Origin: an uncultured Planctomycetota bacterium
Lineage (GTDB): Bacteria; Planctomycetota; Planctomycetia; Isosphaerales; Isosphaeraceae
DNA length: 64,000 bases
Assembly: GCA_963845755.1 (NCBI GenBank)
Contig: CAWJTV010000011.1
Span: 96,001-160,000, forward strand
Direction of reading: 5' to 3'
A program made the translations under genes and the position numbers. Shown in pieces: positions 12,922 to 64,000 of the stretch (position 1 is the first letter of the stretch; the number at the start of each line of letters is the position of its first letter). The notes beneath the pieces are model-generated. The model saw only the letters and a program-made list of their open reading frames with translations, ran no database searches and had not been told where the DNA came from.

Positions 12922-15395
12922 TCAGAAGTGGGATGCGTGGACCCGGCGGAAGTTGAGTTGGGGCGTTTGGCTGTCGGCCATGGCATCGCGGATGCCGCCG
13001 CGAAGTGCGTCGATCAGGTCTTCCTCCGGATGGCCGTCGGCCGGGTAGTCGACCCACTGGCCGCCACGGCGCTGCTTGGAGTAGTTCCGGAAAGCGTCCT
13101 TCAGCCGCGTGCACCGCGGGTGAATCGTCAGGTTGCCGGTCTCCAGGAGCAGCTCGATCGCGTCGAGGCCATCCAGGACCAGGTGTCGGGGCCAGCGATC
13201 GAGGATGCGCGTGCCGAAGACGCGTTCGTATTCGCCATAGGCGGCCGGGCCCAGCGAGGACCGCGCTGTCGCCGCGGGGTCGACACGGACGGAGTCGATC
13301 CGGCCACGGCACGGCAGCTCATCGGCCAGCGCCTTGATGGCACGGGCATTCTTCTCGCTTACCCGATCAATCGCGTGGTAATCGCCGAAGACCGTCACGC
13401 GCGACCAGCCGGCCGCCGGATTCGGTCGGACCTGGAAGAAGACCGCTGCGGTGTGGCGCGACGTACCGGCGTCGATGGCGCAGCGGACCGGGTATCCGGG
13501 GTGATACTCGGCCTCGGTGGAGACGTGCCGGGCAGGGTCGAAGTTGGCGAACCAGACGCCTTCGGTCGTCTCCAGGAACTCGGCGTAGATCTCCTGGCGG
13601 CCCAGCCGGGTATGCTCGTACAGGCTGACGATCTGATCGACGAACTCGCGGGGCAAGTGGACCTGGTTGTCGTAAGTGGTTTCGGTCGTCCGGACGGTGG
13701 TCGGCTCGCCCAGGATTCGCTTCAGGACGGCGACGCGGCGCGGCGTGGTCGTGATGAGGGCCTGGGGATTGGCCCCGTCCCGCAGGGCCAGCATCGCCAG
13801 GTCCCAGGTCATCTGGGCGCGCTTCCAGCAGTTATGGACCAGGATCCCGTTGGCATAGAACTCGTGGGCATCTTCGACGTGAAGGTCGTAGACGGGTGCC
13901 CTATCGGGAAGTTTCTCGATCCTTACGACGGAGGGCGGACTGCTGGCTCCAATGAATTGCCTGACAGCGTCGCGAGCACGTGATCCGCAGGTGTAAATTG
14001 GCTGACGAGAATGGTTGTTGACAGATGGGACACAACTTTGCCGGCCTGCGCTTGATGCGCCGGCGCACGCGATAGGCATCCCCACATTCTCGTGAGCACG
14101 TGACCGTTCGAGGATCGCGGCTCGGAATGGAGTGCCACAGATCGCACACGGCTTCTCGGTTCGCCTCCGTTGAGAGACCTTTGGCTTCTTCGGCCTCGGT
14201 TTAACTCTGCCGGTCCGGTAATAGTACCGTTGCGCACACCGGATGTTGCAGAACTTCGCTCGCATCCCAGTGCTCTGGTAGACAGTTCCGCACCCGACAC
14301 AGACGACGTCGCGCGGCTCCCTTTCGCCCCACTGCTTCCATGAATTCTCCTGAAACTGCTCCTTGGACCATGCAGCCCAACCCTTGGGCCTATGTCGTTT
14401 GAGATGTACCGAGCGAGGAATCGCTTCGAGGTTTTCCGGCGCCCAGTTCGTCTTGTCCTCATCCTTATGGTGGACGTCGTATCCTCTTGGGATTTCTCCG
14501 CAGTGAGCGCGGTAAACGGCGCGATGCAGCATCCGCCCGTTTCGGGACACATAGTACCCGCCGTTGAGATACCAACGGATCCCTCCCCAAGACACGACGC
14601 GAGGTGACGATTGTCCCATGCATTGATTCTATCGCCATGCTGCAAAAGATCAATCCGAATCCACCCCTTTTCATCGATGAATACAAGATGGTTGGCGGTG
14701 CCTTCGAGCGTTCGTCCGTCGGAGAACGTGACCCGGTAGATTTCGGCGGAAGGATTGGACTGCCAGGAATCGAGAACGCGGCGGGGGCCGACGCGGGTCC
14801 ACACGTGCTCGCCGGCTCGCACCGATTCGATCGGCCTCAAGCCTTCGATCGTCTGGACGAGGGTCCCCGCGACCAGGCACGCCAGCTCGTCGGCCCAGAG
14901 GGTGTCGAGGTTCAACCCGCGGGCGCGCTCGGGCTCCTCGCCGCTGAGACAGACGGCACGGGCGCCGTTGGGCCAGGTGACGCGGCGTTTGGACGGCTCG
15001 AACCGAGGCCGGCACCACGGGGACGCGACCGCGAGCAACCCGGAGGGGCCCTCGACCATCACATCGCGGATATCGGCGTTGGTCGGAGCGATCAGGCCGC
15101 CGAGCTTCATGATGCCGGACTCGACCCGGGACTGGATCCAGCAGGCCCCTCCGCGCGTCTTTCCGGCACCTCTCCCGGCGATGTATCCCCAGACGCGCCA
15201 GTCACTTGCGGGCGGACGCTGGGCGACCCGCGCCCGGGGATGAATACGGCACGCGCCGGCAGGCAGCCCGCACGGGCAGGATTCGGCGTACCAATCCCAA
15301 ACCGAGCGGTCGGCCACCAGGGGTGCGAGCGTGCCGAGGCGGGCCTCAGCTCGCGCAATCCGCGCTGCCAGTCCGATCACCGATCTGCTCCTCAA
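12922..15395 (-). CDS. terL: Phage terminase large subunit interrupted by an intein (one apparent 1-nt frameshift near 14120)
   Basis: Walker A AGRGAGKT, GEEPERARG, Walker B LWADELA, LITTTP, TTYDN, RLGRQEIYAEF, nuclease AIDAG and EEDLIDALR. Confidence 0.9.
13831..14879 (-). mobile_element. Intein in terL (inserted right after Walker B), about 350 aa
   Basis: Begins CLVAGTLV..., block B LEGTANHLV, ends VYDLHVEDAHEFYANGILVHN followed by Cys+1 (CWKRA). Confidence 0.92.
13901..14619 (-). CDS. HNH homing endonuclease with CxxC zinc-finger repeats, nested out of frame inside the intein
   Basis: LHRAVY...GEIPRGYDVHHKDEDKTNWAPENLEAI...H; CVGC..FCNIRC, CAIC..TCSREC, CPIC..TCSRRC. Confidence 0.85.
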
Positions 15396-15740
15396 TCTGG
15401 GACATGCGGCGCTCGAGCCCCGCGTAATTCGAGATGGCCATCATGTCGGAAAGGATGGCCCGCAGCGCTGTCAACTTGACGGACTCGGACTCGGCCTCCC
15501 GGGCGAGCACGATGATCCCATCGGCCGCGCGGGTGACGTTCTTGGACATCCGGCCGATGGCCCGGTCGACGGCACGGCGGCGATACGCCTTCACGGCGTC
15601 CTGGACCCTGGGCTCCTTGGCCCATCGGTAGGCCGTCCGCCTGGCGACCTGGTGCTCCCGCGCCACGAGGCGACGGACGTTCCCTGGGCGATTGCCAGGG
15701 CGAGGTTGGACTTCTTGCCTGGGGGATGCGGTTCGGTCAT
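15346..15740 (-). CDS. Terminase small subunit-like HTH protein (frameshifted near 15665)
   Basis: LALAIAQGTSVASW/AREHQVARRTAYRW HTH, helical C-terminus; immediately upstream of and overlapping terL. Confidence 0.65.
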
Positions 15741-15969
15741 GGCGTCAATTGGCAGTCAACGGCAAGGATCCGTCGGCACTCCAGCGCCCCACTCGCGGTT
15801 CTCAGCCCGAGGCCCAGGCTGGCCGGCATGCCCGCGAGGGGCGAGGAAGTGACGTCAAGCAGGATCGAGCACGAGACTCCGACGCGAAGCTCGACGGTCC
15901 GACCGCACCGGCACGCTGCCAGGGGCCCGACTGCCGATCATCGACAGTCGCTTTCACCGTCGTTACTTA

Positions 15970-16087
15970 CAGGATGCCGCAACTTTGGAATTTCGTTAAT
16001 GCACCTACGACGGTTTCTAGCTGTTTTCGCGGCGCAACCCTCGGTATCAACACGAATTAAGAATTTTCAAAAAATTTTTTGCGCTGG
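15970..16087 (-). promoter_or_regulatory. Conserved upstream element, copy 1 (terS-terL operon)
   Basis: Reverse complement of 15970-16007 matches 42308-42345 at 35/38 nt; A/T tract 16061-16087 matches 42228-42254. Confidence 0.75.
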
Positions 16088-16156
16088 AGATTAGCTCAGC
16101 TCATCTCCTTATCAAATGTTTACCAAGGCGTCTTTTTCCTCTTCCCCCGACGGCGG

Positions 16157-43058: not shown

Positions 43059-43143
43059 AAATGAGCGCGGGGCCGATCACGTCCTTCCTGATTCCTCCAC
43101 GACTGGCCGCAAGCTCCTTGATCTTCCATCGAGGTATTCGACG

Positions 43144-44693: not shown

Positions 44694-44749
44694 AGCGCCG
44701 CGAGTGGCTCAAGCCTAAATACAGATTTCAAAAATTGAGGATTTACAAT

Positions 44750-45887: not shown

Positions 45888-46166
45888 ATGAAATTTACCG
45901 CCTTCTTGCTCGTCGTCGTCAACGGTTACAAGACGTATGCCTCGGCAATCCTCGCAGTCGTCGCGGGATTCGGGATGATCCTCACCAAGGACTACGAGGG
46001 GATCGTCTCTCAGCTCTTCCAGGCCCTCATCCTCATCTTCGGCGGCACGAGCGTCGTTGGCTTGAGGCATGCGGTGGCCAAGCTCGAGCGACCCAGCCAG
46101 GTGGGGTTGAGGCACGCCGTGGCCGAGAATTGTCCCAACAGCAACATCGCTGGGAATACCAATTGA
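45888..46166 (+). CDS. Small 2-TM holin-like protein
   Basis: VNGYKTY..ILAVVAG, second TM, GLRHAVAK tail. Confidence 0.55.
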   Translation: MKFTAFLLVVVNGYKTYASAILAVVAGFGMILTKDYEGIVSQLFQALILIFGGTSVVGLRHAVAKLERPSQVGLRHAVAENCPNSNIAGNTN

Positions 46167-46239: not shown

Positions 46240-46905
46240 TCGCTGATTCAGAGGACCAATGCGGCGAGGCGTCGCCGCTTCGAGCCGGATGACGCTTGCC
46301 CGCGACCCAACAACTCGGCTATCTGGCTTACAGCATTCGATGAGTCGTTCCATGTCACCACGACCACGGATTACAAGCCCGGACTTCCCGTGCATCTGGC
46401 CGTCAATCCGGGTGTCCACCGAGGTACCAGCCAGCACGGGCTTCGACCCCGACTCGCCGGCCGGGAACATGTTGCCACAGTTTTCGACAGCTCCTTCGCC
46501 TCAGGAGAGTCCGCCGAAGCCAAGGTCATGCGTATGCGATCCCGAGAACTCCGCAAGGTCGGAATGACCTACGTGATGGGCTCGATGAAGCCGGCGGAGC
46601 ATTGCCGACTCTGCAACGAGGTGAAAGTAGAGGGCTTCCTGATGCGACTTCGATACTCCTGGCTCGACCTTGTGACGTACCCGATCACCTTTGTGCTCCT
46701 GGCGCCCTGGCCTGGCATTTGGTCCGAATCCTACTCGATTTCCTGGGCTATCCGACCATGGATCGATGACCATCGATCGTGTGGTGCCCGCGGCGCACTC
46801 GACAATCCGGGGTTCGCTGACGACCCTCTTCACCAAGCATTATCACCCTATGCCATTCGACTGGCTCAAGAAATCGACGTCCCCCCAGCCGGGGCGCGGC
46901 ACTAG
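46240..46905 (+). pseudogene. Degenerate terminase large subunit remnant (nuclease-domain region only)
   Basis: IWLTAFDESFHVTTTTDYKPGLPVHLAVNPG aligns ungapped (13/31 identical) to VWFANFDPARHVSTEAEYHPGYPVRCAIDAG of the terL at 12.9-15.4 kb; sits just upstream of the portal. Confidence 0.65.
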
Positions 46906-49563: not shown

Positions 49564-49785
49564 ATGCCTGAGACATCGGCGTCCATCAGCGACTCGGCCG
49601 TCCTTCCGGACTCGGCGACCGTCGCTGTCATTCTCGATGCTGGGGCGGCAAGATCACTGTTGGCGAGCCTGGTGAGCGGCGGCTCTCCTCGCCCTGAGAT
49701 AGCAAAGACCGTCTCACTCGCCCTGGTGGAAGCGTTAAATGTGGCAGAGAGCGGGGAAAGAGCCGATGACACCTGTATCTTCTGA
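49564..49785 (+). CDS. Small hypothetical protein
   Basis: Strong AGGAGG RBS, 73 aa. Confidence 0.45.
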   Translation: MPETSASISDSAVLPDSATVAVILDAGAARSLLASLVSGGSPRPEIAKTVSLALVEALNVAESGERADDTCIF

Positions 49786-49867
49786 GCATCGGCACTCGCG
49801 ACCTCTCGTTGGAACTGTCGGGGATTTCGCGCCATCTGGTTGTAGCTGGTTTGGGACTGAAACATCC

Positions 49868-50629
49868 ATGCGTATCGAAGCAGTTATGGTCTGCATCGGG
49901 TACGGCGACTTCCTCGCTGTTACCGCGAGCGAGAACCAGCATCTCCTTGACGACCTGGTCGTCGTTACGTCACCGGACGATGATGAGACCCGCGAGGTGT
50001 GCCGCCGGTACTCTCTTCGGCACGTCTTGAGCGAGGACCATCGTCGCGGAGGGCCGTTCAACAAGGCCCGGCTGATCCAGCGAGGATTCGATCAGATCGG
50101 CGCGAGGGACTGGGTCTTGCACCTCGATGCCGACATCGTGTTGCCGCGCCAGTTCCGCACTCTGCTGGAAATGGCGCACCCCGACGAGCGGGCGATCTAC
50201 GGAGCCGACCGATGCAACTTGGTCGGCTTCGAAGCCTGGCAACGACTCAAACGAGACAAAGGTTCCTGGGACAATTACTCTTACGAGTCCTACCTCCGGT
50301 TCAACCAGGAGGCCTCGCCCGGATCCCGGTGGTGCTCGAAATTGCACGGTTATGTGCCCATCGGGTTCTTCCAACTCTTCCACGGCTCGGCGATCGTCCA
50401 GCACGGTTACCACATCCGCTCCTATCCGTATCATCACGGCGACGCGGCGCGGACCGACGTCCAATTCGCATTACAGTGGGACCGGCGGTGTCGCCGGCTC
50501 TTACCCGAGGTAATCGTGCTCCATCTGGAGAGCGAGCCGTCACCCCTCGGAGCGAACTGGCGGGGCCGGACGACGGCCCGCTTCGGTCCGCGCGCGGGGA
50601 CGCCTCCACTCGTCAGCAGCGTGAGCTGA
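49868..50629 (+). CDS. GT-A fold glycosyltransferase
   Basis: VMVCIGYGDFL, VVVTSPDD, FNKARLI, WVLHLDADIVLP (DxD), GFFQLF, D..FALQW. Confidence 0.75.
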   Translation: MRIEAVMVCIGYGDFLAVTASENQHLLDDLVVVTSPDDDETREVCRRYSLRHVLSEDHRRGGPFNKARLIQRGFDQIGARDWVLHLDADIVLPRQFRTLLEMAHPDERAIYGADRCNLVGFEAWQRLKRDKGSWDNYSYESYLRFNQEASPGSRWCSKLHGYVPIGFFQLFHGSAIVQHGYHIRSYPYHHGDAARTDVQFALQWDRRCRRLLPEVIVLHLESEPSPLGANWRGRTTARFGPRAGTPPLVSSVS

Positions 50630-50702: not shown

Positions 50703-51452
50703 ATGACCGAAGCGACCCTCTCGACGCCGGTAAACCCGGCAACCCCCGTCCAGGCCACGGCGCCAATGGCGGCCCCGACGGTTTCGTCGGCGACCGCAAC
50801 GACCCAACAGACCGTGACGATCCCGCTCGAGCAGATCCAGGCCTTCACGAGCATGCAAGCCAGGCTGGCACAGCTCGAGATCGAACAGCGGAGCCGCGAT
50901 CAAGCCGCGCAGCAGGAGCAAGCACGGGTTATGGCCGAGAAGGGCCAGGTCGAGAACGCCTTGCGGATGCTCCGCGATCAGTCGGAACAACAAGTGCAAG
51001 CCGAACGGGCGAGGCTCGTGCAGGTCGAGGACCGCGCCAAGCGATATGCCCTGGACGGTGAGTTGTCCCGCGCCCTGGCCGCGTGCAACCTGGTCCCCGG
51101 CGGTGCGGAGCAACTGACTCAACTCTGGCGGAACCAGTTCACCGTCGAAGCTCAGGGGGATAGTTTCACGGTGCGTACGCCGACGTTCCAGTCGGTCGGC
51201 GAGTTCGTCTCTCAGCAGCTTGCCCGTACCGAGTATTCCCATTTCCTCCGGGCCCAGAACCCAGGCGGGGGTACCGGCGGAGTCCAGCCGTCGGCACAGA
51301 CACCACCGAGCACGCCCGCCAACCCGGCCCAGATGCCACAACCGAAGAACATGGGCGAGGCCGTCATCCTTCACATGCAGGGCATGCAAAAAGCCCAGGG
51401 TGACCCGAGGGCCAACATGACCCTGCCGATGGGACTCAAGGCCGCGCGGTAA
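50703..51452 (+). CDS. Capsid scaffolding protein (putative)
   Basis: Coiled-coil core, HFLRAQNPGGGTGG, Pro-rich tail, directly upstream of the capsid gene. Confidence 0.65.
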   Translation: MTEATLSTPVNPATPVQATAPMAAPTVSSATATTQQTVTIPLEQIQAFTSMQARLAQLEIEQRSRDQAAQQEQARVMAEKGQVENALRMLRDQSEQQVQAERARLVQVEDRAKRYALDGELSRALAACNLVPGGAEQLTQLWRNQFTVEAQGDSFTVRTPTFQSVGEFVSQQLARTEYSHFLRAQNPGGGTGGVQPSAQTPPSTPANPAQMPQPKNMGEAVILHMQGMQKAQGDPRANMTLPMGLKAAR

Positions 51453-51568
51453 TTCCGTCCTAAATCGTTTTCCACTGTCGTTTGATGCCCAAGTGACGGC
51501 CTTCGAGGCCATGCCGGCCGGGTCTAGTGCGACCCGAGAACCGCGGTTGCACTCAGGGACTCCAATCC

Positions 51569-52789
51569 ATGGCCGACTTTTTGCAAGGGTTCCTCGGAAC
51601 TCAGCAAGCTGGTGTCGAGGCACGAAATGATGTTACCGTTGCGATCAGGAATTGGTTTGCTAACCGCAACCCGCTCGTGACCCGCTTGCCGTATGTCCCG
51701 GTCGAGCGTGTCGACTTCCAGATGTACACGCACAAGTACCGGGCGCGGAGCACCACGCTGAATGCCGCGATCTCCAGCAGCTCTCAGACCAGCCTGACGC
51801 TGGCCGACGCCACATTCCTGATGAACCACGACGTCCTGGAGCTGGTCAACCCCAGCGGCAACGTCGAGCGCGTCCAGGTCAGCGGCGATCCGACCAGCCC
51901 GACCACGGTCAACGTGACCCGCGGTCTCTATACCGAGGTCTTGGGGGCGGTCACGCTCCCGAGCGGGTCCAACAACTACGTGACCGGCCTCACCACGTTC
52001 ACGACCGGAAATACCGTCAACCTGATCGGCAACAGCCGGACCGGCGCGGAGGTTCAGCAGACCGGCCTGACCACGATCGGCGTGGCCCGCACGCAGTATT
52101 GCCAGACGTTCCAGTTCCCCGTGCAAATCGGTGGATCGGCCCAGACGGCGCGGGCGCAGGTGATGCCCGGCGGCATCCAGACGCCGTTCGACTTCAACAT
52201 GACCGTCCAGCTTCAGAACATGGTGGACGACATCGAGAACTCCGTCTACTACGGCGTTGCCCAGGCGCCCAGCGACAGCGCCGGCGTCACGGCCAAGATG
52301 AACGGATTGCGGTCGATCTTCGTGACCAACAATATCTCGACCTGGACCAACACGACGCCGGTCAACGCCGCGGCCTATGGCTCGACCGACCTGATCCGCG
52401 ACACGCTCCAGGTGGCCCGGTCCGGCGGCGGCGAGCCGGACCTGCTCGTTGTCTCGACCAATTTCATGAGCGGGTTCGCGACCTGGGGGCAGGCGATCCA
52501 GCGCGTCCCGGCCGGCGAGACCGTCTTCGGCACGCCCATCAACGTCCTGGAGGCGCCGTTCTTGCACGGCGTCACGATCGTCGAAGCCCCGCTGTTGCGG
52601 CCCTACACGGCGATCGCGCTGACCAGCTCCGAGGTCTACATCCGCAACAAGCGGAACCCGTTCTGGCAGCTCCGCGGCAGCCGCGGCGATATGGTCGAGG
52701 GAGACTGGATCGCCGAGCTGGCGATCGAGGTCGTCAACGAGTCTCATCACGCCTGGGTTGAGGGCATCACCGCCTTCAGTGCGAACTGA
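51569..52789 (+). CDS. Major capsid protein (DUF5309/SU10-like, HK97 fold)
   Basis: RTQYCQTFQFPVQIGGSAQ, DIENSVYYG, KMNGLRSI, GDMVEGDWIAELAIEVVNESHHAWVEGI. Confidence 0.8.
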   Translation: MADFLQGFLGTQQAGVEARNDVTVAIRNWFANRNPLVTRLPYVPVERVDFQMYTHKYRARSTTLNAAISSSSQTSLTLADATFLMNHDVLELVNPSGNVERVQVSGDPTSPTTVNVTRGLYTEVLGAVTLPSGSNNYVTGLTTFTTGNTVNLIGNSRTGAEVQQTGLTTIGVARTQYCQTFQFPVQIGGSAQTARAQVMPGGIQTPFDFNMTVQLQNMVDDIENSVYYGVAQAPSDSAGVTAKMNGLRSIFVTNNISTWTNTTPVNAAAYGSTDLIRDTLQVARSGGGEPDLLVVSTNFMSGFATWGQAIQRVPAGETVFGTPINVLEAPFLHGVTIVEAPLLRPYTAIALTSSEVYIRNKRNPFWQLRGSRGDMVEGDWIAELAIEVVNESHHAWVEGITAFSAN

Positions 52790-52955: not shown

Positions 52956-53442
52956 ATGTGGCGATTCCGGGGAAGCCCGCACTACATCGACCAGCAGGGG
53001 GATCGCCTGGGCGTTCCCAAGATCCTGACCGACCGGGCGCGGCACAACCCGGAGATCTACCGGGTTTCGGTCCTCATCGGCCAGCTTTGCGAACGATACC
53101 ATCGAGCCCCGAAGGACAACGGGCTGCACGGTCGTATCGCCGGCCGAGCTGGCACAGATCCGGGGCACCCTTGGTCAGTGCGAGCAGGAATTGGAGAAAC
53201 TCCACGTCCTGGCGGCCGCCTCTCAAGTCATCGTCGATGAGGCTCACCGTGCCTTCGGGCTCACTCCTCCGGACCGCCGTTTCCGAGTTCGTTGTGATTT
53301 CGACGATCTACCCGAACCTGCCGAGCTCGCCGCCAAGGAAGCACACATCTCTCATGTCTCCTCTGCTACAGGGGAGAGGACACTCGCGTCGAGCTCCGAT
53401 TCAAACACCCACGCGAAACCGAGACACGAGAAGGCACGATAA
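52956..53442 (+). CDS. Hypothetical virion-cluster protein (frameshift near 53140)
   Basis: MWRFRGSPHYIDQ... continuing as ...EQELEKLHVLAAASQ...; stop overlaps the next ATG. Confidence 0.5.
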
Positions 53443-54176
53443 TGGCCTACATCAGCCCCGCGATCACCGCCAGCAGCACGACGTTCGCTCAATTCCAAGC
53501 GGGTGGCGCATCCCGGCACCTGGAGAATCTCATCACGGCGAGCTTGAACGGCACCCAAGCCCCTTCGTCCGCGCCGACCCTATCGGTCTCGGGCACCGGA
53601 GGCCTGCTCGCCGCGGGCACGTACCGTCTCATGATCACCGAGACCAACGGCCTCGGCGAGACGACGGCGAGCCCCGAATCAGCCCAATTCAGCGTGACCG
53701 CAGGTCAAATCCCGACGGTCACCTTCCCGGCACTCCAGGCCGGCAATTCGGCTCGCAATGTCTACCTCACGCCGATAGGCGGTCCCAGCGGAAGCGAGCT
53801 CCTTTACGCCTCCGGTATCACGACCAGTACGTATAGTCTCTCATTCGCTGCGCCCTCGAGCTCCTACGCCGTCGCACCGCCAACGACGAATACTACCGGG
53901 CTAACGAGCTCCAAGATCCAGCTCCTCCGGTATGCGAAGACCGGCCAGTTCCAGAAGGTGTGGGACTTCCTCCATGAACTTCTCAGCGTCTTCAACCAGG
54001 GGGATCCCGCGTCCTATCAGAGCATCATGATAAAGCTGCGAGATGTCCACACCGTCTTCGCCATGATGTCGCAACTCTGCGCCGAGGGCGGAACCCTCAT
54101 CGACGCCAACCCCGGCCATTTCGTCAATGTCAGGACAGGGATCGGTGGGACGAGGACCGAACGGACGTGGCCCTGA
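53442..54176 (+). CDS. Putative virion structural/decoration protein (beta-rich domain)
   Basis: GGLLAAGTYRLMITETNGLGETTASPES...ARNVYLT. Confidence 0.55.
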   Translation: MAYISPAITASSTTFAQFQAGGASRHLENLITASLNGTQAPSSAPTLSVSGTGGLLAAGTYRLMITETNGLGETTASPESAQFSVTAGQIPTVTFPALQAGNSARNVYLTPIGGPSGSELLYASGITTSTYSLSFAAPSSSYAVAPPTTNTTGLTSSKIQLLRYAKTGQFQKVWDFLHELLSVFNQGDPASYQSIMIKLRDVHTVFAMMSQLCAEGGTLIDANPGHFVNVRTGIGGTRTERTWP

Positions 54177-55366: not shown

Positions 55367-56068
55367 ATGACCCTCAGTGCATCCCTGCCCGAACAGACGA
55401 CGCCCGTTTATTGCACGGACGAGGACATCCTCGTGCATGCCGGCGGCGACTTCATCACGCTCTGCCCTCCCTGGCAACAAATGGCCGCTGGAACCGATGG
55501 GAGCTTCGCCTCTGGGACTCCGTGGGTGCTGACCTCGGCTTCCGTCGACTTCGCCGCAAACGGAGTAAGTGCTAATCAAGTGATCTGGCTGACGGCGCCG
55601 AAGACGCAGTACCCCGGCGGCGGCCAGCTCCTGGCGATCGACAGCGTTTCGGGCAACTCCATCACGCTCAGACGACCGCACAAGGACCTTTACGTCGGCC
55701 AGCCGCCGGCACCCGCCTCGGGTTTGACCACGGTCGCCTTCACCATCAACACCCTCGACCCCCAATCCGAAGAAGCCAGCTTCGACCTCAAGCGACGGTT
55801 CGCCATCGACGACACGGTCGGCGGCGACTTCAGCCGGTCGAGTTCCTGGGTCTACGATCTACGCGACCTCCGGATGGCCACGGTCCTCTCGGTCCTCCAT
55901 GACCGCTACACGCAGGAGACGCGCACGGACAAGGGCGACTACGCGATCAAGATCAAGCGAATCGACCAGCAGCTAAACGACGTCCTGTCTCGCGTCCAGG
56001 TGCGCTGGGGGCCGTTTGGCAATTCGGCCGAGCCGTCCACGCTTTTTAGCTGCAAGCTGAGTCGATAG
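55367..56068 (+). CDS. Head-tail adaptor-like protein
   Basis: N-terminal VYCTDEDI, helical C-terminus; position after the capsid. Confidence 0.55.
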   Translation: MTLSASLPEQTTPVYCTDEDILVHAGGDFITLCPPWQQMAAGTDGSFASGTPWVLTSASVDFAANGVSANQVIWLTAPKTQYPGGGQLLAIDSVSGNSITLRRPHKDLYVGQPPAPASGLTTVAFTINTLDPQSEEASFDLKRRFAIDDTVGGDFSRSSSWVYDLRDLRMATVLSVLHDRYTQETRTDKGDYAIKIKRIDQQLNDVLSRVQVRWGPFGNSAEPSTLFSCKLSR

Positions 56069-56608: not shown

Positions 56609-56612
56609 GCCG

Positions 56613-57473
56613 GTGCCGACCATTCGTGGCACCCTTGACAGCGCGGCCCCGAACACGGGCGTGCCAAACCGCGCGATCTCGATCCGTGGCACCATCAGCA
56701 ACGCGGGCAGCGGCTCGTCGGTCGCGAGACCCGTCGCTCGGCACGGTACGCCGCTGTTCCGCGGCGAGGTCCGGCTGGGCACCTTGGTGCTCAGGGCTCC
56801 GGTGAATGAGGTCCAGTATCATGTCTACAGGAACAGCGCAGGCAGCAGTCCGATCAACTACGGATCCCCGGCCGCGACCGTCTTGGCCACCACCTGGACT
56901 ACCGGAACCCTAGAAGCGCCTGGCACTTGGCTATTTGGAGTCCGGGCGTTCAACGACGGCGGCGAGGAGCAGAATCTCGACTGCGCCGTCGAGATTGTGC
57001 TGGACGCCACCGGCAACGACATCACCAACATCCCGCTTCCACCCACTGGACTCAGGACTTTCGCGACTTCTGGTGGTGGCATTCGGGTCGAGTGGTGGTA
57101 TCCCGCGACGCCAGGTCCAAGGGCACCGACGGGGTTCCACGTCTATGTGAGCGGCCACGCGTCCTATGGGGCCGTGCCGAACATCGTCGTGCCGGGCAAT
57201 TCTGCCGCCGTGAATGACGGCTCCGTCACGGCCACGGGCAAAGGGGCGACCCCGAACTACTCCACACCGGCGGCGACCGTCCTTTACAGCGCCGGCATCT
57301 TCAACACTTTTCAATCCAATCTCGACAGCCTTTCCGACGGCATCCAATACACCGTCGGGGTTCGGGCTTTCAACGCATCTGGCGAAGAACAGAACACCAC
57401 GGTCGTCACGGTGACGGCCGATGCCACCGGGCCAGCGGCCGTCGATTCGCTGACCGCCACAGCGATCGTGTGA
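56613..57473 (+). CDS. Tandem fibronectin type III-like domain protein
   Basis: Two repeats: YHVY...GVRAFNDGGEEQN and FHVY...GVRAFNASGEEQN. Confidence 0.65.
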   Translation: MPTIRGTLDSAAPNTGVPNRAISIRGTISNAGSGSSVARPVARHGTPLFRGEVRLGTLVLRAPVNEVQYHVYRNSAGSSPINYGSPAATVLATTWTTGTLEAPGTWLFGVRAFNDGGEEQNLDCAVEIVLDATGNDITNIPLPPTGLRTFATSGGGIRVEWWYPATPGPRAPTGFHVYVSGHASYGAVPNIVVPGNSAAVNDGSVTATGKGATPNYSTPAATVLYSAGIFNTFQSNLDSLSDGIQYTVGVRAFNASGEEQNTTVVTVTADATGPAAVDSLTATAIV

Positions 57474-57491
57474 TCCAGAGGATGCGACTCC

Positions 57492-58981
57492 ATGTCAGTG
57501 AATCTGAACAACCTTGCGAACAACGTTTCCGGCTTGACGCTGGCAAATGCGTACACAGCCGGTTCCGGAAGTTTCATGCTCACATCCGGCGGCAGTATGT
57601 TTCCCGCCGCACCTTGCCGCATGACGGTCATCACGGCGGCAACCTATCAGACGCCCGCCGAGACGTTGACCATCTACGAGGTCACGGGTATCGCCGGGAA
57701 CGTCATCACGGTCTCCGGCGCGATCGAGGGTACGACCGATCGCAATTATGCTGTTGGCGACAAGGTCGATCTGAGGCTCACGGCGGGCTCGGTCAACGAT
57801 CTGAATACATCGTTGACGCCCCTGATCGAGACCGTGGCGGCCACTGGCTCGACCCAGGGCGGCGCGGCGGCACTGGCGGCGTCGAGCTTCTTTGCCACCG
57901 AGGGCTTCCACCTGATCACGGCCAGCGCTGCCGCTGGCGTCGTGCTCCCGGCGATTACCTCGGCAGGCCACAAGTCCACCGTCATCAACACGTCGGCGTT
58001 CGTGATCACCGTCTACCCCAATGGCAGTCAGACGATCAATGGCGGCTCTGGGGGCATGGGCATCACCATCCCAGCCGGCGCGACAAAGACCTTCGTCTCC
58101 TCGACCACATCGAACTGGCAGACATCCGGAGCCGGCGTCACGGTCTTCGGCACGGCGGGCGGCTCCGCCGTTGTGAACGCCACATATACCGTGCCTGCGG
58201 GCTGCACAACGCTCCGCATGATCGCCATCGGAGCCGGGGCCGGCGGCGGTGCGGGCGGCGTCGGCGCCAACAGCACATTCGGCGGCAACGGCGGCGCCTC
58301 CGGCGGCTACTCCGACGCGACCTACATCACGTCCGCAATCCCCAGCACCTTCACGGTGAACGTGGGCGCTGGCGGCACGGGGGGCGCCGGCGGCACGAGT
58401 GCGACCGGCAATAGCGGGGCGCCGGCTCGGGCAATAGCACGGTTTCCAACGTCAACCTCTTCCTTTCCGCGTCCTGTGCGGCCACGGGCGGCGGCGGCGG
58501 CGGTGCATCCGTCGGTGCGACGTCGAACGCCGGCACGTCGAACTTCTACGCGGGCGCCGCTGGCGGCCTCTCGACGGCGGGCAACGGCAACGGCGGGACC
58601 AATACCAGCTCCCTCGCGCCCGGTTCCGGGGGCGCCGGTGGTGGGATCAGTAGCGGCGGCGTCGCGGGTAACGGCGGCGGCGGCGGGGCGATGGTGCGCG
58701 TCCAGGCCAACGGTGGTGCCGGCAGCGGCGGTGCGGGCGTGGCGAGCGGGACCCCGAACGCGGGCACGGCGGCTCCGAACCCGGGCGGCATCACCCTGAT
58801 GGCCATCGGTGGCGGTGGCGGCGGCGGTGGCGGCGCCAACAGCGGCGGCAACGGCGGCAACGGCGGCGCGGGTGCATTCCCGGGCGGCGGCGGCGGCGGC
58901 GGCGGTGCTGGCTTCACCGGAAACAGCAGTGGTGGCGGCGCCGCGGGCGCGAATGGGATCGTGATCTTCATCGCATCCTGA
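57492..58981 (+). CDS. Glycine-rich tail-fibre-like protein (frameshifted)
   Basis: GAIEGTTDRNYAVGDKVDLRLTAG; YTVPAGCTTLRMIAIGAGAGGG; C-terminal GGGGGG...GANGIVIF. Confidence 0.7.
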
Positions 58982-59024: not shown

Positions 59025-62000
59025 GTGCCCAGCCACGTCCCCAACCAGCTCGCGCCGAATACGGCCGTCCCCGGCGCGCTGCCCGTCCGCGCTCTCGACG
59101 CGCGGTGCCGAACCGATTCGTCCCCAACCAGCTCGCGCCGAACGGCCCGGGGCAGGCCGCGATCGTGCCGGTGTATTTCCTGGCGGGCGCGGCGACAGGC
59201 GCTCCGGGCAGCGCGCGTTTGTCGTGACGCTCACTCCGCAATCGATGTCCGGTACTGACACGGTGACGCTCTCCGACGGCGGCGCCGGTGGGACATTTCT
59301 CCCGTCGGCGACTCTGGCGATCACGGCGGCGACGCCGGCTCAGGCGATCTCGTATATTCCGCCGGCCGTCGGCGGCTTCTCGATCACGGCGAGCAGCCTC
59401 GCCGGCTACCAAGTCCGCGGCAATCCCCAGACCATCTCTGTCTCCGCGGAGATCTACCCGAATCTTGAGCTTGGGCAACTGCCGAATGGGCTTCCCTCGG
59501 TCTACGTTGACCAGACTGGGCAGCTCGTCTACTTTCTCGTCCAGCAAGACCACGGCGGTTCTGCGCGGCCGCTGTTGCATCTGCTGCTGCGAACGTCACT
59601 GGAGGTAGTGTCGCCGGGTTCAGTGTTATTTCGGGCGGCTCTGGCTACTCCAGCAGCACGCCCCCATCCGTCTTTCTCGCTGGCGGTGGAGGCACAGGCG
59701 CCACGGCGACGGCGACGGTCTCGGGCGGTGTCGTGACCGGGATCACTGTGGTCAACCCCGGCGGCGGGTACACGTCGGCGCCCACCGTGACGATCTCGCC
59801 AGCACTGCCGTCGTACGTGACCTCGGTCTCGGCCAACCCCACGATCTACAAGAACGGCGTCGCGCAGACGCTGCCGATGATCGTCAATACCATCGCGGTC
59901 ACCGCCGGGGGCCATTCGTACACGCTGGCTCCCGTCGTCACGATCACACCGGCATCCGGGGACACGACCGGCACGGGGGCGACCGCAACCGCCACGCTCT
60001 CGGGCGGGTCCGTCTCCAGCATTACGATCACGTTGCCGGGAGCCTGCTACACCAAGCCCCCCACCGTCACGATCACGCGAGCATCCGGGGACACGACCGG
60101 CACGGGGGCGACCGCAACCGCGACGATCGGGCCGTTCTGGACCAATTCCAGCCACCAGTGGCCGTATGTGGTCTACCAGCTCCCGACCCAGGCCAGCTCG
60201 ACCGACGTCCTGACCTTCAGCGCGCCATCCGGATGGCTGACGACCAGCGCCGGCTCGCTTCCCGCCGTGACTCTGGCCCCGATCACGAATTTCGTGGGCC
60301 AGCTGGAGACGGCCCCGGTCGGCTGGGGGTATTGCTCGTTCGGGACCAACCACGGCGTGATGGGGCTCGGCATCAATGTCGCGTGGCCCAACTCCGACAG
60401 CAGCAGGCCCTATTACCAGTCGCGGAACTGGATGCACCGGGCGACGCGATCCTGGGCGCCGCCGGCAATGTGCCGAACGCCGTCACGATCGACGCGGGGG
60501 GGCACCCCACGGCCATCGTCGCGGCCAACGGGACCGCGTACGCAGGGATGATTTCCACCCTGTTCAATTCGGTGAACACCCAGGGCCTGGCGACGGTCAA
60601 TGGGGTCTGGAGCTTCATCGCCACGGAGAATGCCGGCGGCCCGCTTTACCCCACCGCCACCCCGATGGTCGTGTCGCTCACGGGCACCCCGCTAACGACC
60701 GTCACCGCGCTGCCGGGGTCGCCGACCGGGACCAGCCCCGGGACCAAGGTCTGGCAGTGGCATGTCCACACGCCCAACGGCACCGGGGCTGCGTATGCGT
60801 GCGGGCTCACGCTGGAGGTCCAGACCCCCGGCGGCGGCCCCGGCCCGTGGACCCTCTCGGACGAGTGGTTCCTGACGCCGCAGGCGTTCGCCCCGGCCCC
60901 GGTCGGCGACATCAACGTCACCGCCTATGGCAGCGGCTACACGGCACCCACGGCGACGCTGACCGGCGGCGGCGGCACGGGCGCAACCGCGACCGTCGGG
61001 GCGCTGGCCAACGGCGCCATCATCGCGGCGACGGTCACCAGCGGCGGCACGGGCTACAACGCGAACGCGCGGCCGACGGTCACCGTCTCGGGCGGCGGCG
61101 GCACGGGCTTCGCGGCCTTCGTCAATATCCTGGGCGGCGCCATCGCCAGCGTCGTGGTGTCGAATTGCGGCTCGGGATACACGAGCGCCCCGACGCTCGG
61201 GCTCAGCGGGGGTTCCGGTACGGGCGCGGTCCTGACCGCCGCCGCGCCGGTCAACGGCGTCATCACCAGCATCTCGGTCGGCAATCCCGGCTCGAATTAC
61301 ACCTCGTCGCCCGCGGTGACGATCGCGGACGCCACCGGCTCGGGCGCGACCGCATGGGCGCTCCTGCTGTGCCGACCCCAGAGCACGAACGTCTCGGATG
61401 CGGCGGCGCCCGACCCGAGCGTCGTCGCGATGCTGACGACCCCCTCCGGCAAGACCCCGACGTTCTGCCGGTTCATGGACGTGACCCAGACCTTCGACAA
61501 CGAATCCAACGTCACCGACGCGGACGACCTGATCCAGCTCACGGATTTCTCGTGGGTGAGCCAGCGGCTGCCGGCGGCCACCGCCACGGTCGCGGGCAAC
61601 GCCGTGACCGGGCTCACGTTCACGTTCACGGGCCAGAACCTCTCGTCGGCTCCCGCGGTCGTCTTCACCGGCGGCGGCGGCACGGGCGCGGCCGCGACCG
61701 TGACCGTCGCCGGCGGCTCGATCACGGGATACACGATCACCTCGGGCGGCTCGGGATACACGAGCGCGCCGACGGTTGCGCTGGTGGGCGGCAATACCAC
61801 CAACCTGATGCGCACCTTCGCCATTACCCAGATCGGGCCGTACACGCCGAACAAGGTTTACGTGTCGGACAACTGGCCCGGCACCACGGCGTCAGCGAAT
61901 TATCCGGCAAGCGATCCGCTCCCGTACTACTGGACTCCCACGTCGCCCACTTTCCTGGACTCCTGGTATCAGGGAGGTAATAGCAGCAATTCCTGGGCGG

Positions 62001-63478
62001 CCGAAGCAACGACCGCATTGCCCCACGGCCTCAAGACGGGACAGCAAATCTCCTGGGTCGGCACGGTTGGCGGCACGATCACGGTTCAGGCGCCGGGCGG
62101 CAACGCGGTCAACGTTACCCCTACGACTGCCAGTACCCTCGCGGTATACGTCACCAGTCCGACCACGTTCGCTTTCTGGATGAACTCGAACTCGCTGAAC
62201 AAGGGGTTCGGGATCGCGAGCGTCACGTCCGCGGCGGTCTCGTGTCGCCCTGGTCGGCACCGTCATCGTCCCGGACCAGGGCGTCGTGGCGTACGAGGTC
62301 CCGGCCGACTACTCCAACTATCTGCCGGGCAGCAACCTCCACATCAACATCCCGCACAATGCGACGCTCGCGTGCACCCAGGCCATCGCCGTGCGGCGTG
62401 CTCGCGGTCGTCTCGCCGGACGTGCTGATCGAGGTCGAATTCACGAACGAGCACTGGGACAACACCTTCGTCCGCAACAACATACTGTGGAGCTACGGCA
62501 ACATCTCGGGGCTGTTCCCCACCTCGTCGACGGTCCTCGACCAGATTTACACCCTGAGGGCCTCCCAGGTCCATCAGGCGTTCTTTGACGTCTTCGACGC
62601 AGCAGGGCGCGGCAACCAGATCATCCGGCTATTCGCCGGATTCTGGGTTGAGCCGATCGTCACGACGAATATGTGCGCCTATGCGGCGGCGAACAACATC
62701 CAGATGGATGCCATCGTGATCGCCCCCTATCCGGGCATCCCCAGGGATATACCACTGATCTCAGCCGGCGCCCTGCTGGCGACCTACAGCGCGGACAGCG
62801 TCCTGTTTGGAGCGACCTCGCCGTGGACGCGGCCCATGATGTCCTCGGTCCTCCGGCATCACACCAAATACGGTTCGGACTCAAACCTCTGGGCACAGCA
62901 CGCGTCTGCGATCACCCAGAACTACATCGGTGCGGGAGCGCCCGCCACGCGCTTTGGCCGGTTCCCGGTCATCGGCTGCTACGAGAACTGCGCTCACCCC
63001 CCTCATCCCGACTGGCGTGGACCTGTTCAGTTCGGACGTCAATTCGGTGAGTTTGCGGTCGCAGTTGACGTTTGACCTGCGCTACGACCCGTCGCTCTAC
63101 TCCGCCCAGCATGCGCTCTACGAGTCGGCACAGGACGGCGGGGCGACCTATTGCATCCATTACAACTTCTGCGGGGCGAACAGCACGACGGCCACGCAGT
63201 ACGACGGCCCCAGCGCCCTCAATTATCCCCTCTATACCTGGCTCGGCCAGTTGTGGGGCTACGGGGACGGCTCCGACGGCAAGCCGGTCAACCAATTCGC
63301 CGCGCCCACTTTCGTCACTGCTCATGACTATCAGAACGTCTCGGTGATGGGTCAAGCGTGGCGCGACTGGGCGGACGCGGCCAACACAGCGTTGTTGCCA
63401 CGCCGTGCGAGCAACACGTTGACGAATTGTCGGTGGTTTCCGAAATTGCAACGCCCTGTCGCCCGGATGAGAGCATAA
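59025..63478 (+). CDS. Large fibre/spike-like protein with [10 protein letters not shown] repeats and a glycoside-hydrolase-like domain (several frameshifts)
   Basis: Repeated [12 protein letters not shown] units; [25 protein letters not shown] motifs across successive frames. Confidence 0.6.
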
Positions 63479-63487
63479 GAGGTTAGG

Positions 63488-63943
63488 ATGTCCAGAGAAC
63501 GCGACGTTCGGAACGCCTTACAGACGGCCCTCCTGGCGACCGGTTCGTTCAGCGACGTGTGGCTGAGCGGGCTTCCCGAGGCTTTCGGCCATGGGGTCAG
63601 CGACCTCACAGCGGCGGCGATTGAGCCAGTTGCGAGCGAATTCAGCGCGGGCTGGGATTCGGCTCCCGGTGGCTCGCTCGATTATACGACCACTTTGCGC
63701 GTGACGTTGCTGGCGCGACATCCGGACCCACAACTTCGCGATGAACTCGCTGAGCAACTCCTGAACTATTTGAACGACGCCGTGAACGGACAGGCACTCG
63801 TACCTGGGTACACCGTTCCCCAGAAGACGTCGGTGACTTCTTGGCAATGGCAGACCGCAGTACCCCCGGAACGGCGCATTGTGGCGGTGGCCAGCATCTC
63901 CTACCTGGTCGAAGGTTGGGACAACTTCGACGTCTCTGAATAA
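63488..63943 (+). CDS. Tail terminator/completion-like protein
   Basis: MSRERDVRNALQTALLATGSFSDVW..., 151 aa, typical size and position. Confidence 0.55.
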   Translation: MSRERDVRNALQTALLATGSFSDVWLSGLPEAFGHGVSDLTAAAIEPVASEFSAGWDSAPGGSLDYTTTLRVTLLARHPDPQLRDELAEQLLNYLNDAVNGQALVPGYTVPQKTSVTSWQWQTAVPPERRIVAVASISYLVEGWDNFDVSE

Positions 63944-63955
63944 GGGTTCTAGTTC

Positions 63956-64000
63956 ATGTCAGCAACGGCACTTCAGCTAAATTGGAGTTCTGTCGAGTTC
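63956..64000 (+). CDS. Start of next structural gene (possibly tail tube), truncated
   Basis: ATG TCA GCA ACG GCA CTT CAG CTA AAT TGG... open to the window end. Confidence 0.35.
   Translation, partial: MSATALQLNWSSVEF

Follow-up and report, generated by a model that had tools for sequence, protein, structure and literature searches.

The 64,000-nucleotide stretch of DNA analysed here (the window) carries a cluster of phage-type head and tail genes that probably encodes a host-owned particle of the gene-transfer-agent (GTA) kind. The spread of the cluster within the Isosphaeraceae, the congruence of trees, the synteny of its flanks and its dS and dN/dS values support its interpretation as a domesticated element derived from phage morphogenesis genes, as proposed in an earlier note on this DNA, and as vertically inherited and non-mobile. 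The wider GTA-like reading of that note was partly supported: domestication and the lack of a working terL in cis held, whereas the identity of the terminase pair, the conservation of its linkage to the cluster and the privacy of a shared upstream element did not.

Layout and gene content of the cluster

Both loci described earlier were recovered by matches to Pfam and PHROGs, namely a terS-terL pair at 12.9-15.7 kb on the minus strand and a head and tail cluster starting at 42.3 kb on the plus strand, in which portal, scaffold, capsid and fibre-like genes were recognised. The approximately 26 kb between them were confirmed to hold ordinary genes, identified by Pfam as outer-membrane efflux proteins (OEP), HlyD, AcrB, Lhr, DUF1501, rsmH, a LysM protein, two dienelactone hydrolases (DLH) and an ABC exporter. 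In extended coordinates the cluster ends at about 72.9 kb, 9 kb beyond the window, which gives it a length of about 30 kb, and it is followed by genes for a pentapeptide protein, an alternative sigma factor (found 3' of the cluster in five genomes) and an M32 peptidase. Its GC content is 63.0%, compared to 64.4% for the genome. A search of the window against Rfam gave no matches, and when sequencing runs were searched, only five metagenome runs were found to contain 5-7% of the sampled words, with no RNA run listed among them. Hereafter, G000 is the genome carrying the window, the remaining G-numbers are sampled relatives and C-numbers are contigs.

The first gene of the cluster (42370..43058, +) encodes a helix-turn-helix N-terminal part and a Cys-rich C-terminal part, which lie in two frames in the assembly and are both spanned by the 227-aa homolog of G079. 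No family match was found for it in Pfam, PHROGs or NCBIfam, and the PHROGs search of the G079 cluster gave one marginal transposase match (E 0.008), to this gene. A conserved gene with no assigned function follows (42991..43590, +), with homologs in G048, G083 and G079 and dN/dS values of 0.21-0.48. The best-conserved gene of the cluster (43777..44718, +; dN/dS 0.09-0.10, 443 homologs) encodes a papain-like (C1) cysteine peptidase. It had no Pfam match at E <= 0.01, and its sequence contains the C1 motif Gln-x5-Cys, then His, then Asn/Gln-Ser-Trp-Gly, with residues Q72, C77 ('QQIGDC'), H227 and Q245-S-W-G invariant across 17 sequences; its nearest Atlas clusters are viral, some of them with PF00112, which is taken as a lead.

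A small conserved gene (45888..46166, +), located 5' of terL in the relatives, precedes the head module. The portal protein (46691..48778, +), single copy in the genome, matched phrog_145 (5e-33; dN/dS 0.08-0.11), the scaffolding protein (50703..51452, +) matched phrog_206 (6e-10; dN/dS 0.10-0.12), and the major capsid protein (51527..52789, +) belongs to the SU10_MCP family (PF17236, 7e-34; dN/dS 0.10-0.14), as do the capsids of relatives (about 1e-35 to 1e-41); no PDB sequence match to the capsid was obtained with phmmer at E <= 0.09. Within the same module there is a family-2 glycosyltransferase gene (49739..50629, +) with weak Pfam GT2 matches and 72-75% identity in G048 and G083. A head-closure-like protein (53442..54176, +) showed a weak match to phrog_8040 (5e-5) and is kept in G048, G083, G066 and G029. 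The ORF at 52958-53836 was dropped as a gene, as a dN/dS above 1 at low dS indicated a wrong frame.

The product of 55367..56068 (+), with homologs in all ten relatives compared, is regarded by its modelled fold as a putative head-to-tail adaptor (neck): its AlphaFold model (pLDDT 82) was aligned by VIA-align mostly with phage neck/adaptor chains (Z 6.3-8.2), and Foldseek gave no match at E <= 0.001. Then come FN3-like and glycine-rich fibre-like proteins (56613..58799, +; a weak fn3 match, a Gly_rich_2 match and tail-fibre PHROGs), with a 78% identical paralog on contig C40, and a large repeat-domain virion protein (59733..62428, +) in two frames in the assembly, with matches to the virion structural repeats phrog_701, phrog_19630 and phrog_460 and internal repeats D5-D10, so that the fibre-like genes reach 62.4 kb. 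The tail module starts with a conserved 151-aa gene (63488..63943, +) with homologs in G048, G083, G066, G029, G079, G087 and G052, which gave no match in Pfam, PHROGs or PDB sequences (phmmer) and is, by its position, a candidate for the tail tube. The cluster has a long-tail module with a hub that was recognised by its fold as being of the gp27/VgrG type, the 732-aa hub protein having 647 relatives in metagenomes at the 50% cluster level; a phmmer search of PDB sequences with L001:3304-4023 (extended coordinates) yielded nothing useful.

The structural genes of a GTA are therefore represented by portal, scaffold, capsid and fibres (Pfam, PHROGs) and by the adaptor and hub folds. The terminases, portal, capsid, hub and peptidase had no counterpart in NCBIfam, and no holin or endolysin was recognised in the cluster. 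Since about half of the cluster ORFs remained without a family assignment, genes for lysogeny, replication or lysis could have gone unrecognised among them.

Spread, descent and selection

Of the 101 genomes sampled from the family, assigned to Isosphaeraceae and not to Gemmataceae by the names attached to two homologs, 78 had a capsid match, mostly a single one per genome. Counted by genus or by high-quality genome the capsid was present in 42/53 and 32/41, respectively, with whole genera scoring 5/5 or 0/3. The 23 genomes without a match include G020, the one genome of the same genus, which is also devoid of an ortholog of the flanking ABC exporter. Outside the family, 11 of 400 genomes of the phylum matched the capsid, all of them at 24-28% identity, with no close relative among them.

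The capsid tree mirrored that of RpoB in the 29 genomes compared, with three major clades and many pairs in common. On the capsid tree, genus labels required 6 changes (minimum 6) and host-clade labels 4 (minimum 3), and none of 500 label shuffles reached either count. The capsids of G034 and G023 showed long branches away from the place of their hosts. Synteny extends to the two flanks in G000, G048 and G083, which represent two genera: rsmH-LysM-DLH-DLH-ABC exporter precedes the cluster and pentapeptide-sigma-M32 peptidase follows it. The flanks differ between distant genera, and gene order within the cluster is kept along about 30 kb in genera that share only 42-43% capsid identity.

The dS values of the cluster (0.6-1.5) were like those of flanking host genes (ABC exporter, 0.64-0.89). 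For most cluster genes dN/dS was about 0.1-0.2 (range 0.04-0.48, compared to 0.08-0.41 for the host flanks), and the values of about 0.1 for capsid and portal indicate purifying selection, as expected for the structural genes of a GTA. The comparisons of synteny, of capsid and species trees and of dN/dS that the earlier note had proposed thus came out in favour of domestication, and the presence in 78/101 genomes, the congruent trees, the syntenic flanks and a dS equal to that of the flanks correspond to the vertical inheritance of a GTA.

An upstream element common to both loci

A promoter-like dispersed element was located upstream of terS (15964..16090, -), with an AT-rich box followed by the core GGTGCATTAACG-N8-AAAGTTGCGGCATCCTG at 16005-15970, and a second copy upstream of the first cluster gene (42230..42351, +), with its core at 42310-42345. 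That the same element precedes both loci, as had been noted before, was corroborated by the alignment of 15964-16037(-) with 42278-42351(+), 74 nt at 74%, which extends to about 140 nt including the AT-rich box. The genome contains at least 92 copies of this element, mostly 5' of ordinary genes; all 40 other sites examined precede ordinary genes, and 37 of 64 ORFs downstream of the element had a Pfam match, none to a phage family. Four of the copies in G000 precede the cluster, the window pair, a terL on contig C28 and a terS on contig C26, which leaves at least 88 elsewhere. Genus-specific variants were detected upstream of the cluster and of two terS-terL cassettes in G048, and upstream of the cluster in G083. 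The simple form of the proposal that the element is a plain housekeeping promoter was rejected, since the strict motif was found in 2 of 41 genomes, both of genus g1.

With regard to the apparent co-regulation of the two loci proposed earlier, the element recurs before the cluster and the cassettes in a second genus but is not private to the two loci. As the cluster and the cassettes each lie behind a copy of the element, a common host factor may switch both on.

Native terL, clade B and the packaging motor

As the earlier note had stated, the cluster's own terL position holds only a decayed remnant. This 150-residue sequence, 5' of the portal gene (46240..46689, +), was detected by tblastn and corresponds to the nuclease-domain part of the native (clade A) terL (residues 332-484 of the intact cluster terL of G083, 44% identity, E 1e-29); the terLs of G079, G087 and G052 detected it as well. 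In the tree, the window terL belongs to a second, multicopy clade (B). The native ortholog in G000 is an orphan clade-A terL at the end of contig C4, which falls inside clade A at the place predicted by the host tree, and the same genome has a solo clade-B terL on contig C28 and terL fragments on contig C37. Walker A/B and the nuclease Asp are retained in all three G000 terLs (window, C28 and C4), and the clade-B exteins showed dN/dS values of 0.13-0.26 against their relatives.

Both terL types were scored in 13 genomes including G000, with relatives that are not independent and classes defined after the data had been seen. Clade A was intact without B in G027, G063 and G090 (3/13), intact with B in G083 (1/13), interrupted by three stops in cis with B in G080 (1/13), truncated with B in G071 and G000 (2/13) and absent with B present in G048, G039, G078, G066 and G029 (5/13), whereas G014 carries a clade-B terL in cis, between the homolog of 45888-46166 and the portal gene (1/13). 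No genome lacked both types (0/13).

As the native terL of G000 is a remnant, packaging would depend on terminase genes elsewhere. In the comparison of G048 with G071, both without an intact cis terL, the dN/dS was 0.096 for the capsid and 0.113 for the scaffold, and this purifying selection on head genes argues for a motor in trans. To this extent the supply of the motor from a second locus, as the earlier note had put forward, is sustained, but the window pair belongs to clade B and is not the relocated native terL, the ortholog of which is on C4. The pairing of the two loci 26 kb apart did not hold either, as this linkage is not conserved and the closest B copy in G048 is on another contig. 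Clade-B terL was also found in two genomes that gave no capsid or portal match, G020 and G037, and in G083, which retains its native terL intact; clade B may therefore serve something other than the cluster. The B cassettes are multicopy and lie in unrelated contexts; tblastx between cassette loci was noisy and readable only in that homology between copies is limited to terS-terL.

These properties of clade B would also fit a domesticated cluster with a product other than a GTA, such as a particle that is empty of DNA or loaded with its own DNA and serves in killing, defence, adhesion or the delivery of cargo, with the B cassettes as an unrelated element family. The repeated loss of the native terL while head genes stayed selected favours such a particle, as do the genomes with B and no detectable capsid and the scattered contexts of the cassettes. 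Against it stand the strong purifying selection on the portal, the presence of one or other terL type in all 13 close relatives scored, the B terL placed in cis in G014, and the upstream element that cassettes and cluster have in common in two genera, and we consider it a serious though unlikely explanation.

The window terS-terL pair, its intein and its frame breaks

The small terminase subunit gene (terS, 15346..15740, -) matched phrog_2538 (1.3e-9 for 15346-15666), and its N-terminal part lies in another frame up to an ATG at 15740, with a frame break at a G run near 15680 that was read in three frames against the intact G048 copy. It is 63-66% identical to the cassette terS of G048 and G083. 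The clade-B terL (12922..15395, -), which matched phrog_2 and HNH families, occupies two overlapping frames, 13923-15395(-) and 12922-14619(-). Pfam Terminase_6N was matched in both halves (profile 3-117 and 108-211), with Hint_2/Intein_splicing and HNH_3 between them; therefore, terL is real, with an HNH intein and a frame break inside.

From its junctions, 'WADELA/CLVAGT' and 'VHN/CWKRAQ', the gene was divided on the minus strand into an N-extein to about 14880, an intein at about 14879-13831 and a C-extein at 13830-12922, the insertion site being directly 3' of Walker B. The features of a class 1 intein were found, that is, a Hint domain, Cys1, TxxH (block B 'TANH'), a C-terminal HN followed by Cys, and an HNH endonuclease domain. 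Its frame is not continuous, with a change near 14620 and a length of 1049 nt, not a multiple of 3. The intein and its frame break had not appeared in the earlier note. Among clade-B terLs the intein was present only in the window copy; none was found in the three copies read fully (G000 C28, G048 C5 and G014 in cis), and partial clade-B matches showed no sign of one.

The assembly also breaks rpoB, with a frame of 678 aa compared to about 1240-1530 aa in most relatives, as well as rsmH, acrB and others, so the breaks in terS, terL and the intein may be assembly errors. Taken at face value, the broken frames of terS, terL and several cluster genes, together with the terL remnant, the fragments on C37 and the three stops in the cis terL of G080, would suit an old defective prophage decaying in place, the other terminases being scraps of dead prophages and nothing being functional. 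This is quite improbable, since rpoB and rsmH are broken too, most cluster genes have host-like dN/dS values of about 0.1-0.2 at a dS of 0.6-1.5, the cluster is kept in 42/53 genera, and collinearity over about 30 kb persists between genera with such divergent capsids.

Search for mobility and lysogeny functions

The statement that neither locus has integrase, repressor or replication genes was upheld by Pfam and PHROGs, which detected none across the window and its two 20-kb flanks, including the sequence beyond 64 kb where the earlier note had suggested looking for them and for att sites; the 40-kb loci of G079, G087 and G052 were likewise free of such genes by Pfam, and in the G079 cluster PHROGs gave only the marginal transposase match mentioned above. 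A tRNA scan of the window gave none, and no att-like direct repeat was found, the longest word common to the cluster ends being 14 nt. The hallmarks of an integrated prophage (integrase/recombinase, att repeats, tRNA target) were thus missing from the regions searched and, as in a GTA, no replication, integration or lysogeny module was seen among the recognisable ORFs, about half being without a match. A temperate phage lineage, still active or active until recently, that infects the whole family and in which one preferred integration site mimics vertical descent, would account for the complete-looking head, neck, tail and fibre set, for the GtrB-like glycosyltransferase in the G079 cluster, a moron of the kind typical of temperate phages, for the metagenome relatives of the hub and for the different flanks of distant genera, but it is very improbable given that integrase, excisionase, repressor or replication genes were recognised in 0/4 genomes, that att repeat and tRNA were lacking, that cluster dS equals that of flanking host genes, that the capsid tree fits genus labels perfectly and that terL is missing at the locus in at least five genomes.

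A GTA-like model and its relation to known systems

In the GTA-like reading that we favour, an Isosphaeraceae ancestor would have acquired the particle gene set, and its descendants would have inherited the cluster as a fixed chromosomal locus. With its portal, scaffold, SU10-family capsid, neck adaptor, fibres, long-tail module with hub and papain-like peptidase, the cluster may build DNA-filled tailed particles for the host. The native terS/terL module beside the portal would have decayed to a remnant in G000, and the candidate motors would be the clade-B pair at 12.9-15.7 kb, in which terL has to be freed of its HNH intein by splicing, the solo clade-B terL on C28 and the relocated native clade-A terL on C4. 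Through the promoter-like element, a common host factor may co-switch the cluster and the cassettes. For this combination of ancestral acquisition, fixed locus, GTA-like function, terminase in trans and joint switching by the shared element, we see a modest balance of probability in favour. A more extensive proposal is put forward tentatively, namely that this is a family-wide Isosphaeraceae GTA with an origin separate from that of every GTA described so far, that in one sublineage the native terminase has been repeatedly displaced by trans-acting multicopy terS-terL cassettes, one of them intein-gated, and that the particle locus and the cassettes belong to a host regulon whose hallmark is a promoter element that evolves fast and differs from genus to genus.

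No GTA in Planctomycetota was described in the titles and abstract openings on which a full-text literature search was mostly judged, and the term gene transfer agent is absent from a 2025 review of Planctomycetota; in another paper, prophages appear only as the label of a category. If the GTA-like reading is true, a family-wide selected particle locus would be a natural route of DNA exchange in bacteria that are hard to manipulate, and possibly a genetic tool. The graded states of the native terL (intact, stop-bearing, truncated, absent, replaced in cis or in trans) would constitute a natural experiment on the exchange of the packaging motor in a domesticated virus and on the dispersal of such a virus to several loci.

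The capsid resembles that of SU10-family tailed phages in its match to PF17236 (7e-34). Phage SU10 is short-tailed, whereas the cluster has a gp27/VgrG-type hub, as in long-tailed phages and contractile systems. Large terminases that bear inteins with homing endonucleases are of a known kind, and the window terL agrees with them in its class-1 signature (Cys1, TxxH, HN+Cys) 3' of Walker B and its HNH endonuclease domain, but differs in the broken reading frame of the intein in the assembly.

RcGTA of Rhodobacter capsulatus and the alphaproteobacterial GTAs consist of head-tail genes of phage origin that come with no replication or integration functions, are distributed over several loci and are under host control. 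The cluster has in common with RcGTA its head-tail genes without such functions, a stable place on the chromosome with vertical transmission throughout a large clade, purifying selection, essential parts at several loci and a presumed control by host regulators that govern many other genes. In contrast, its length of about 30 kb is roughly twice that of the RcGTA head-tail cluster, and the terminase is in trans, in several paralogous copies, one of them with an intein. The likeness is one of gene organisation, in a system known from its genes and with a capsid assigned to Pfam SU10_MCP.

GTA-like packaging is also described in Faecalibacterium and other Oscillospiraceae/Ruminococcaceae (Borodovich et al., Nat Commun 2026, PMC12946183). 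That system belongs to a different phylum and its packaged DNA was sequenced, whereas the present one is deduced from comparative genomics; both would be newly recognised cases of capsid-based mobilisation of host DNA outside the Proteobacteria, by a system inferred to belong to the host.

Composition of the head-tail cluster

The window spans positions 96001-160000 of contig C11 in genome G000. The loci, the terminase remnant and the shared upstream element described in the earlier note were confirmed by profile scans, tblastn and alignment. The phage-derived cluster, encoded on the plus strand, begins at 42.3 kb with an HTH/Cys-rich gene, followed by two conserved genes without assigned function that lie alongside a papain-like peptidase (43777-44718, invariant Q72/C77/H227/QSWG), by a small gene and by a remnant of the large terminase gene terL (46240-46689). 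After the remnant come, in this order and on the same strand, the portal, a GT2 glycosyltransferase, the scaffold, an SU10-family capsid, a head-closure-like gene, a neck adaptor recognized by its fold, and fibre-like and repeat proteins. One of these, at 57492-58799, is 78% identical to the fibre protein of a second phage-like region on contig C40 of the same genome, G000 (L009:8970-12713), which also carries a different small terminase gene, terS (phrog_6299), and a head protease.

The cluster extends past the window end to about 72.9 kb (locus L001), where the conserved genes include one for a 732-aa protein. Because the structure model of this protein (pLDDT 83) resembles the baseplate hubs and central spikes found in contractile systems, in myophages and in siphophages (Foldseek E-values 3e-10 to 1e-6), the tail is predicted to be of the long-tailed kind. 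Next in L001 are genes for a pentapeptide-repeat protein, an RpoD/RpoS-like sigma factor, a PEP-CTERM protein and an M32 carboxypeptidase. The first two (L001:9786-12563) come after the cluster in each of the five genomes compared (G000 and its relatives G079, G087, G048 and G083), even where other flanks differ, and they may be part of the particle element.

Profile, tRNA and repeat searches revealed no integrase, repressor, replication gene, tRNA or att repeat in the window or its flanks, including the tail module beyond 64 kb. Likewise, Pfam detected neither an integrase nor a replication gene in the loci (40 kb each) of G079, G087 and G052, where the host flanks are different, and the sole addition made by PHROGs to the cluster ORFs of G079 was a marginal transposase match of the first gene (E 0.008). 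About 33 kb downstream of the window, a reverse-transcriptase-like ORF (L002:13240-14091; RVT_1, 4e-6) adjoins an LRR protein.

The genes between the terminase pair and the cluster (16 to 42 kb) encode, according to HMM scans, three OEP (outer-membrane efflux) proteins, a TPR protein, HlyD, AcrB, Lhr, DUF1501, an ankyrin protein, RsmH, a LysM protein, two dienelactone hydrolases (DLH) and an ABC exporter. A tandem duplication of about 1.95 kb (16151-19776, 81-94% identity) covers the OEP genes. Elsewhere in the window, eleven copies of a tandem repeat with a 30-nt period (8100-8643) lie within an ORF without family match (7849-8667).

Distribution and descent of the cluster

The capsid gene, present in one copy in G000, was detected in 78 of the 101 sampled genomes of the family, corresponding to 42 of 53 genera and 32 of 41 high-quality genomes, with a worst best-hit E-value of 2e-24. 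The family was recognized as Isosphaeraceae by homolog names (Aquisphaera giovannonii, 'Isosphaeraceae bacterium'). Presence was consistent within genera (for example, 5/5 in g16, g20 and g30, and 0/3 in g21), and outside the family only 11 of 400 sampled genomes of the phylum gave capsid matches, all at 24-28% identity.

When capsid and host trees of 29 genomes were compared, the latter built on a 494-aa RpoB segment, three major clades and many sister pairs were common to both. For genus labels (7 genera, 17 rows), the capsid tree required 6 changes, which is the minimum, and for four host-clade labels (28 rows) it required 4 against a minimum of 3; for either set, none of 500 label shuffles was as low. 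The exceptions, G034 and G023, are on long branches.

G048, G083, G066 and G029 keep the gene order collinear between 42.7 and 72.9 kb, as do the distant genera of G079 and G087, whose capsids are 42-43% identical by tblastn; a shorter version was found in five further genomes. Both flanks are common to G000, G048 and G083. Between G000 and the latter two, cluster genes showed dS of 0.5-1.5 (a few higher) and dN/dS of 0.04-0.48, with 0.10-0.14 for the capsid and 0.08-0.11 for the portal, and flanking host genes resemble them in divergence (ABC exporter, dS 0.64-0.89, dN/dS 0.09-0.12). Domestication of the cluster, as proposed in the earlier note, is thus well supported computationally by its distribution, the congruence of the trees, the conserved flanks and purifying selection.

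The terminase genes

In distant relatives, an intact native terL of 526-551 aa is directly upstream of the portal gene, whereas at this site G000 keeps only residues equivalent to terL 332-484. A terL tree of 36 rows (16 in an earlier version) was divided into two fully supported clades. Clade A contains all portal-adjacent terLs of the three host clades, together with an orphan gene of 508 aa located where contig C4 of G000 ends (G000:C4:66883-68397, L008:11871-13397, minus strand), whose neighbours are a D-serine dehydratase-like gene, DUF4365 and an M20 peptidase. Because this orphan groups, on a long branch (0.81), beside the genus that is sister to G000 in the RpoB tree, it is the native terminase of the cluster, relocated.

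Clade B contains the terL of the window and those of the other cassettes. It was detected in 25 of the 101 family genomes (E <= 1e-60), nearly all in a large-genome sublineage and often with 2-7 matches per genome. The G000 copies are found amid ordinary genes, as for that of C28, between a sulfatase gene and mnmE, and homology between clade-B copies is confined to terS-terL.

In the window, HMM scans detected terS (15346-15666, phrog_2538) and terL as two overlapping frames (13923-15395 and 12922-14619), all on the minus strand, with Hint/Intein_splicing and HNH_3 domains between two Terminase_6N halves. Residue-by-residue reading showed an N-extein ending in LWADELA, the Walker B motif, an insert that starts with CLVAGT, has TANH as block B and ends in VHN, and a C-extein opening with CWKRAQ; the intein-free terL of G048 reads uninterrupted across this point (WADELACWRRAQ). 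By domains and residues, this is a class-1 intein with an HNH endonuclease, directly after Walker B (13831-14879, minus strand). Three clade-B copies were read from end to end (G000 C28, G048 C5 and the cis copy of G014), and all lack it.

Assembly errors may account for the frame breaks seen in terS, the intein and some cluster genes, since housekeeping genes of G000 are likewise split (rsmH, 33161-34185; acrB, 23581-26974; the M32 peptidase gene, L001:14575-16165; and also DUF1559, BipA and phospholipase D (PLD) genes), and the two breaks inspected, in rsmH and terS, are at short G/C runs. The open frame of rpoB (L091) reaches 678 aa, compared to about 1240-1530 aa in most relatives. Single-base indel errors are therefore probably numerous in the assembly (14.27 Mb, 49 contigs, GC 64%), and would likewise account for its completeness estimate of 88%.

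When the state of terL was compared in 13 close relatives, clade A was intact with no clade B found in G027, G063 and G090, intact together with B in G083, interrupted by three stops with B in G080, truncated with B in G071 and G000, and absent with B present in G048, G039, G078, G066 and G029, while in G014 a cis copy of B separates the small gene from the portal. None lacked both types, although this is a pattern and not a test, the genomes being kin and the classes drawn after the fact. In G048 and G071, both without an intact cis terL, capsid and scaffold showed dN/dS of 0.10-0.11 at dS of 0.36-0.47. Clade-B exteins are also under purifying selection (dN/dS 0.13-0.26), and all three terL candidates of G000 retain Walker A/B and the nuclease aspartates. 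Against a strict link, clade B is present in G020 and G037, in which neither capsid nor portal was detected; in G020, the cluster region may simply be unassembled, because the ortholog of the flanking ABC exporter is missing too. A terminase acting in trans, as the earlier note had suggested, is therefore supported circumstantially, but not specifically for the terS-terL pair of the window.

The shared upstream element

The match between the regions upstream of the terS-terL pair (15964-16090, minus strand) and of the cluster (42230-42351, plus strand) is real, and corresponds to a dispersed, oriented element of about 140-150 nt, in which an AT-rich box accompanies a 36-nt core. When up to 9 mismatches were tolerated, the core was located at 92 sites in G000, including sites upstream of the C28 terL (149 nt) and of a terS-like gene on C26 (253 nt). 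Of the 88 not located before a cluster or terminase gene, 40 were examined, which covered 36 of 62 single sites and, for four repeat families, representative members. Pfam matches were obtained for 37 of 64 downstream ORFs, all with ordinary functions and none to phage families; among them are 2-oxoglutarate and pyruvate dehydrogenase E1, UvrB, RecO, GroES, HisRS, AsnB, ECF sigma factors and CheW. Seventeen copies head a repeated unit encoding a 402-aa ORF without Pfam or NCBIfam match (for example, G000:C12:25633, L042:192-1400), which may be a mobile element.

The strict motif occurred in genus g1 only, with 72 sites in G000 and 118 in its congener G020, and was absent from 39 other genera. 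A variant particular to G048 occupies 38 sites, of which three precede its cluster and two terS-terL pairs, and in G083 a variant is directly upstream of the cluster; the element is homogeneous within a genome and drifts between genera. By our own arithmetic, 92 oriented sites spread over 14.27 Mb would place one by chance in about 0.16% of 500-nt upstream regions, so that finding the element at four of the seven loci for packaging or the cluster is far above chance. The element therefore looks like a promoter or operator that serves a sizeable host regulon, to which the particle genes would belong. The co-regulation proposed earlier holds in this weak sense of a shared regulon element, but the element is not private to the particle genes.

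Comparison with known systems

No description of a planctomycete gene transfer agent (GTA) was found among the titles and abstract openings listed for GTAs, Planctomycetes, Gemmataceae, Isosphaeraceae and SU10, nor in passages of PMC12603096, and the term 'gene transfer agent' has no occurrences in a 2025 review of Planctomycetota (PMC12673574). Homology between the Isosphaeraceae system and RcGTA is not demonstrated, and the two differ in size and capsid family. RcGTA is a multi-locus GTA, and the Isosphaeraceae system would work in a like manner. The putative inclusion of the particle genes in a host regulon resembles the control of GTAs by global host regulators. In contrast, what is placed in trans is the terminase in the Isosphaeraceae system and accessory parts in RcGTA, and the paralogous terminase cassettes and the intein further set the former apart.
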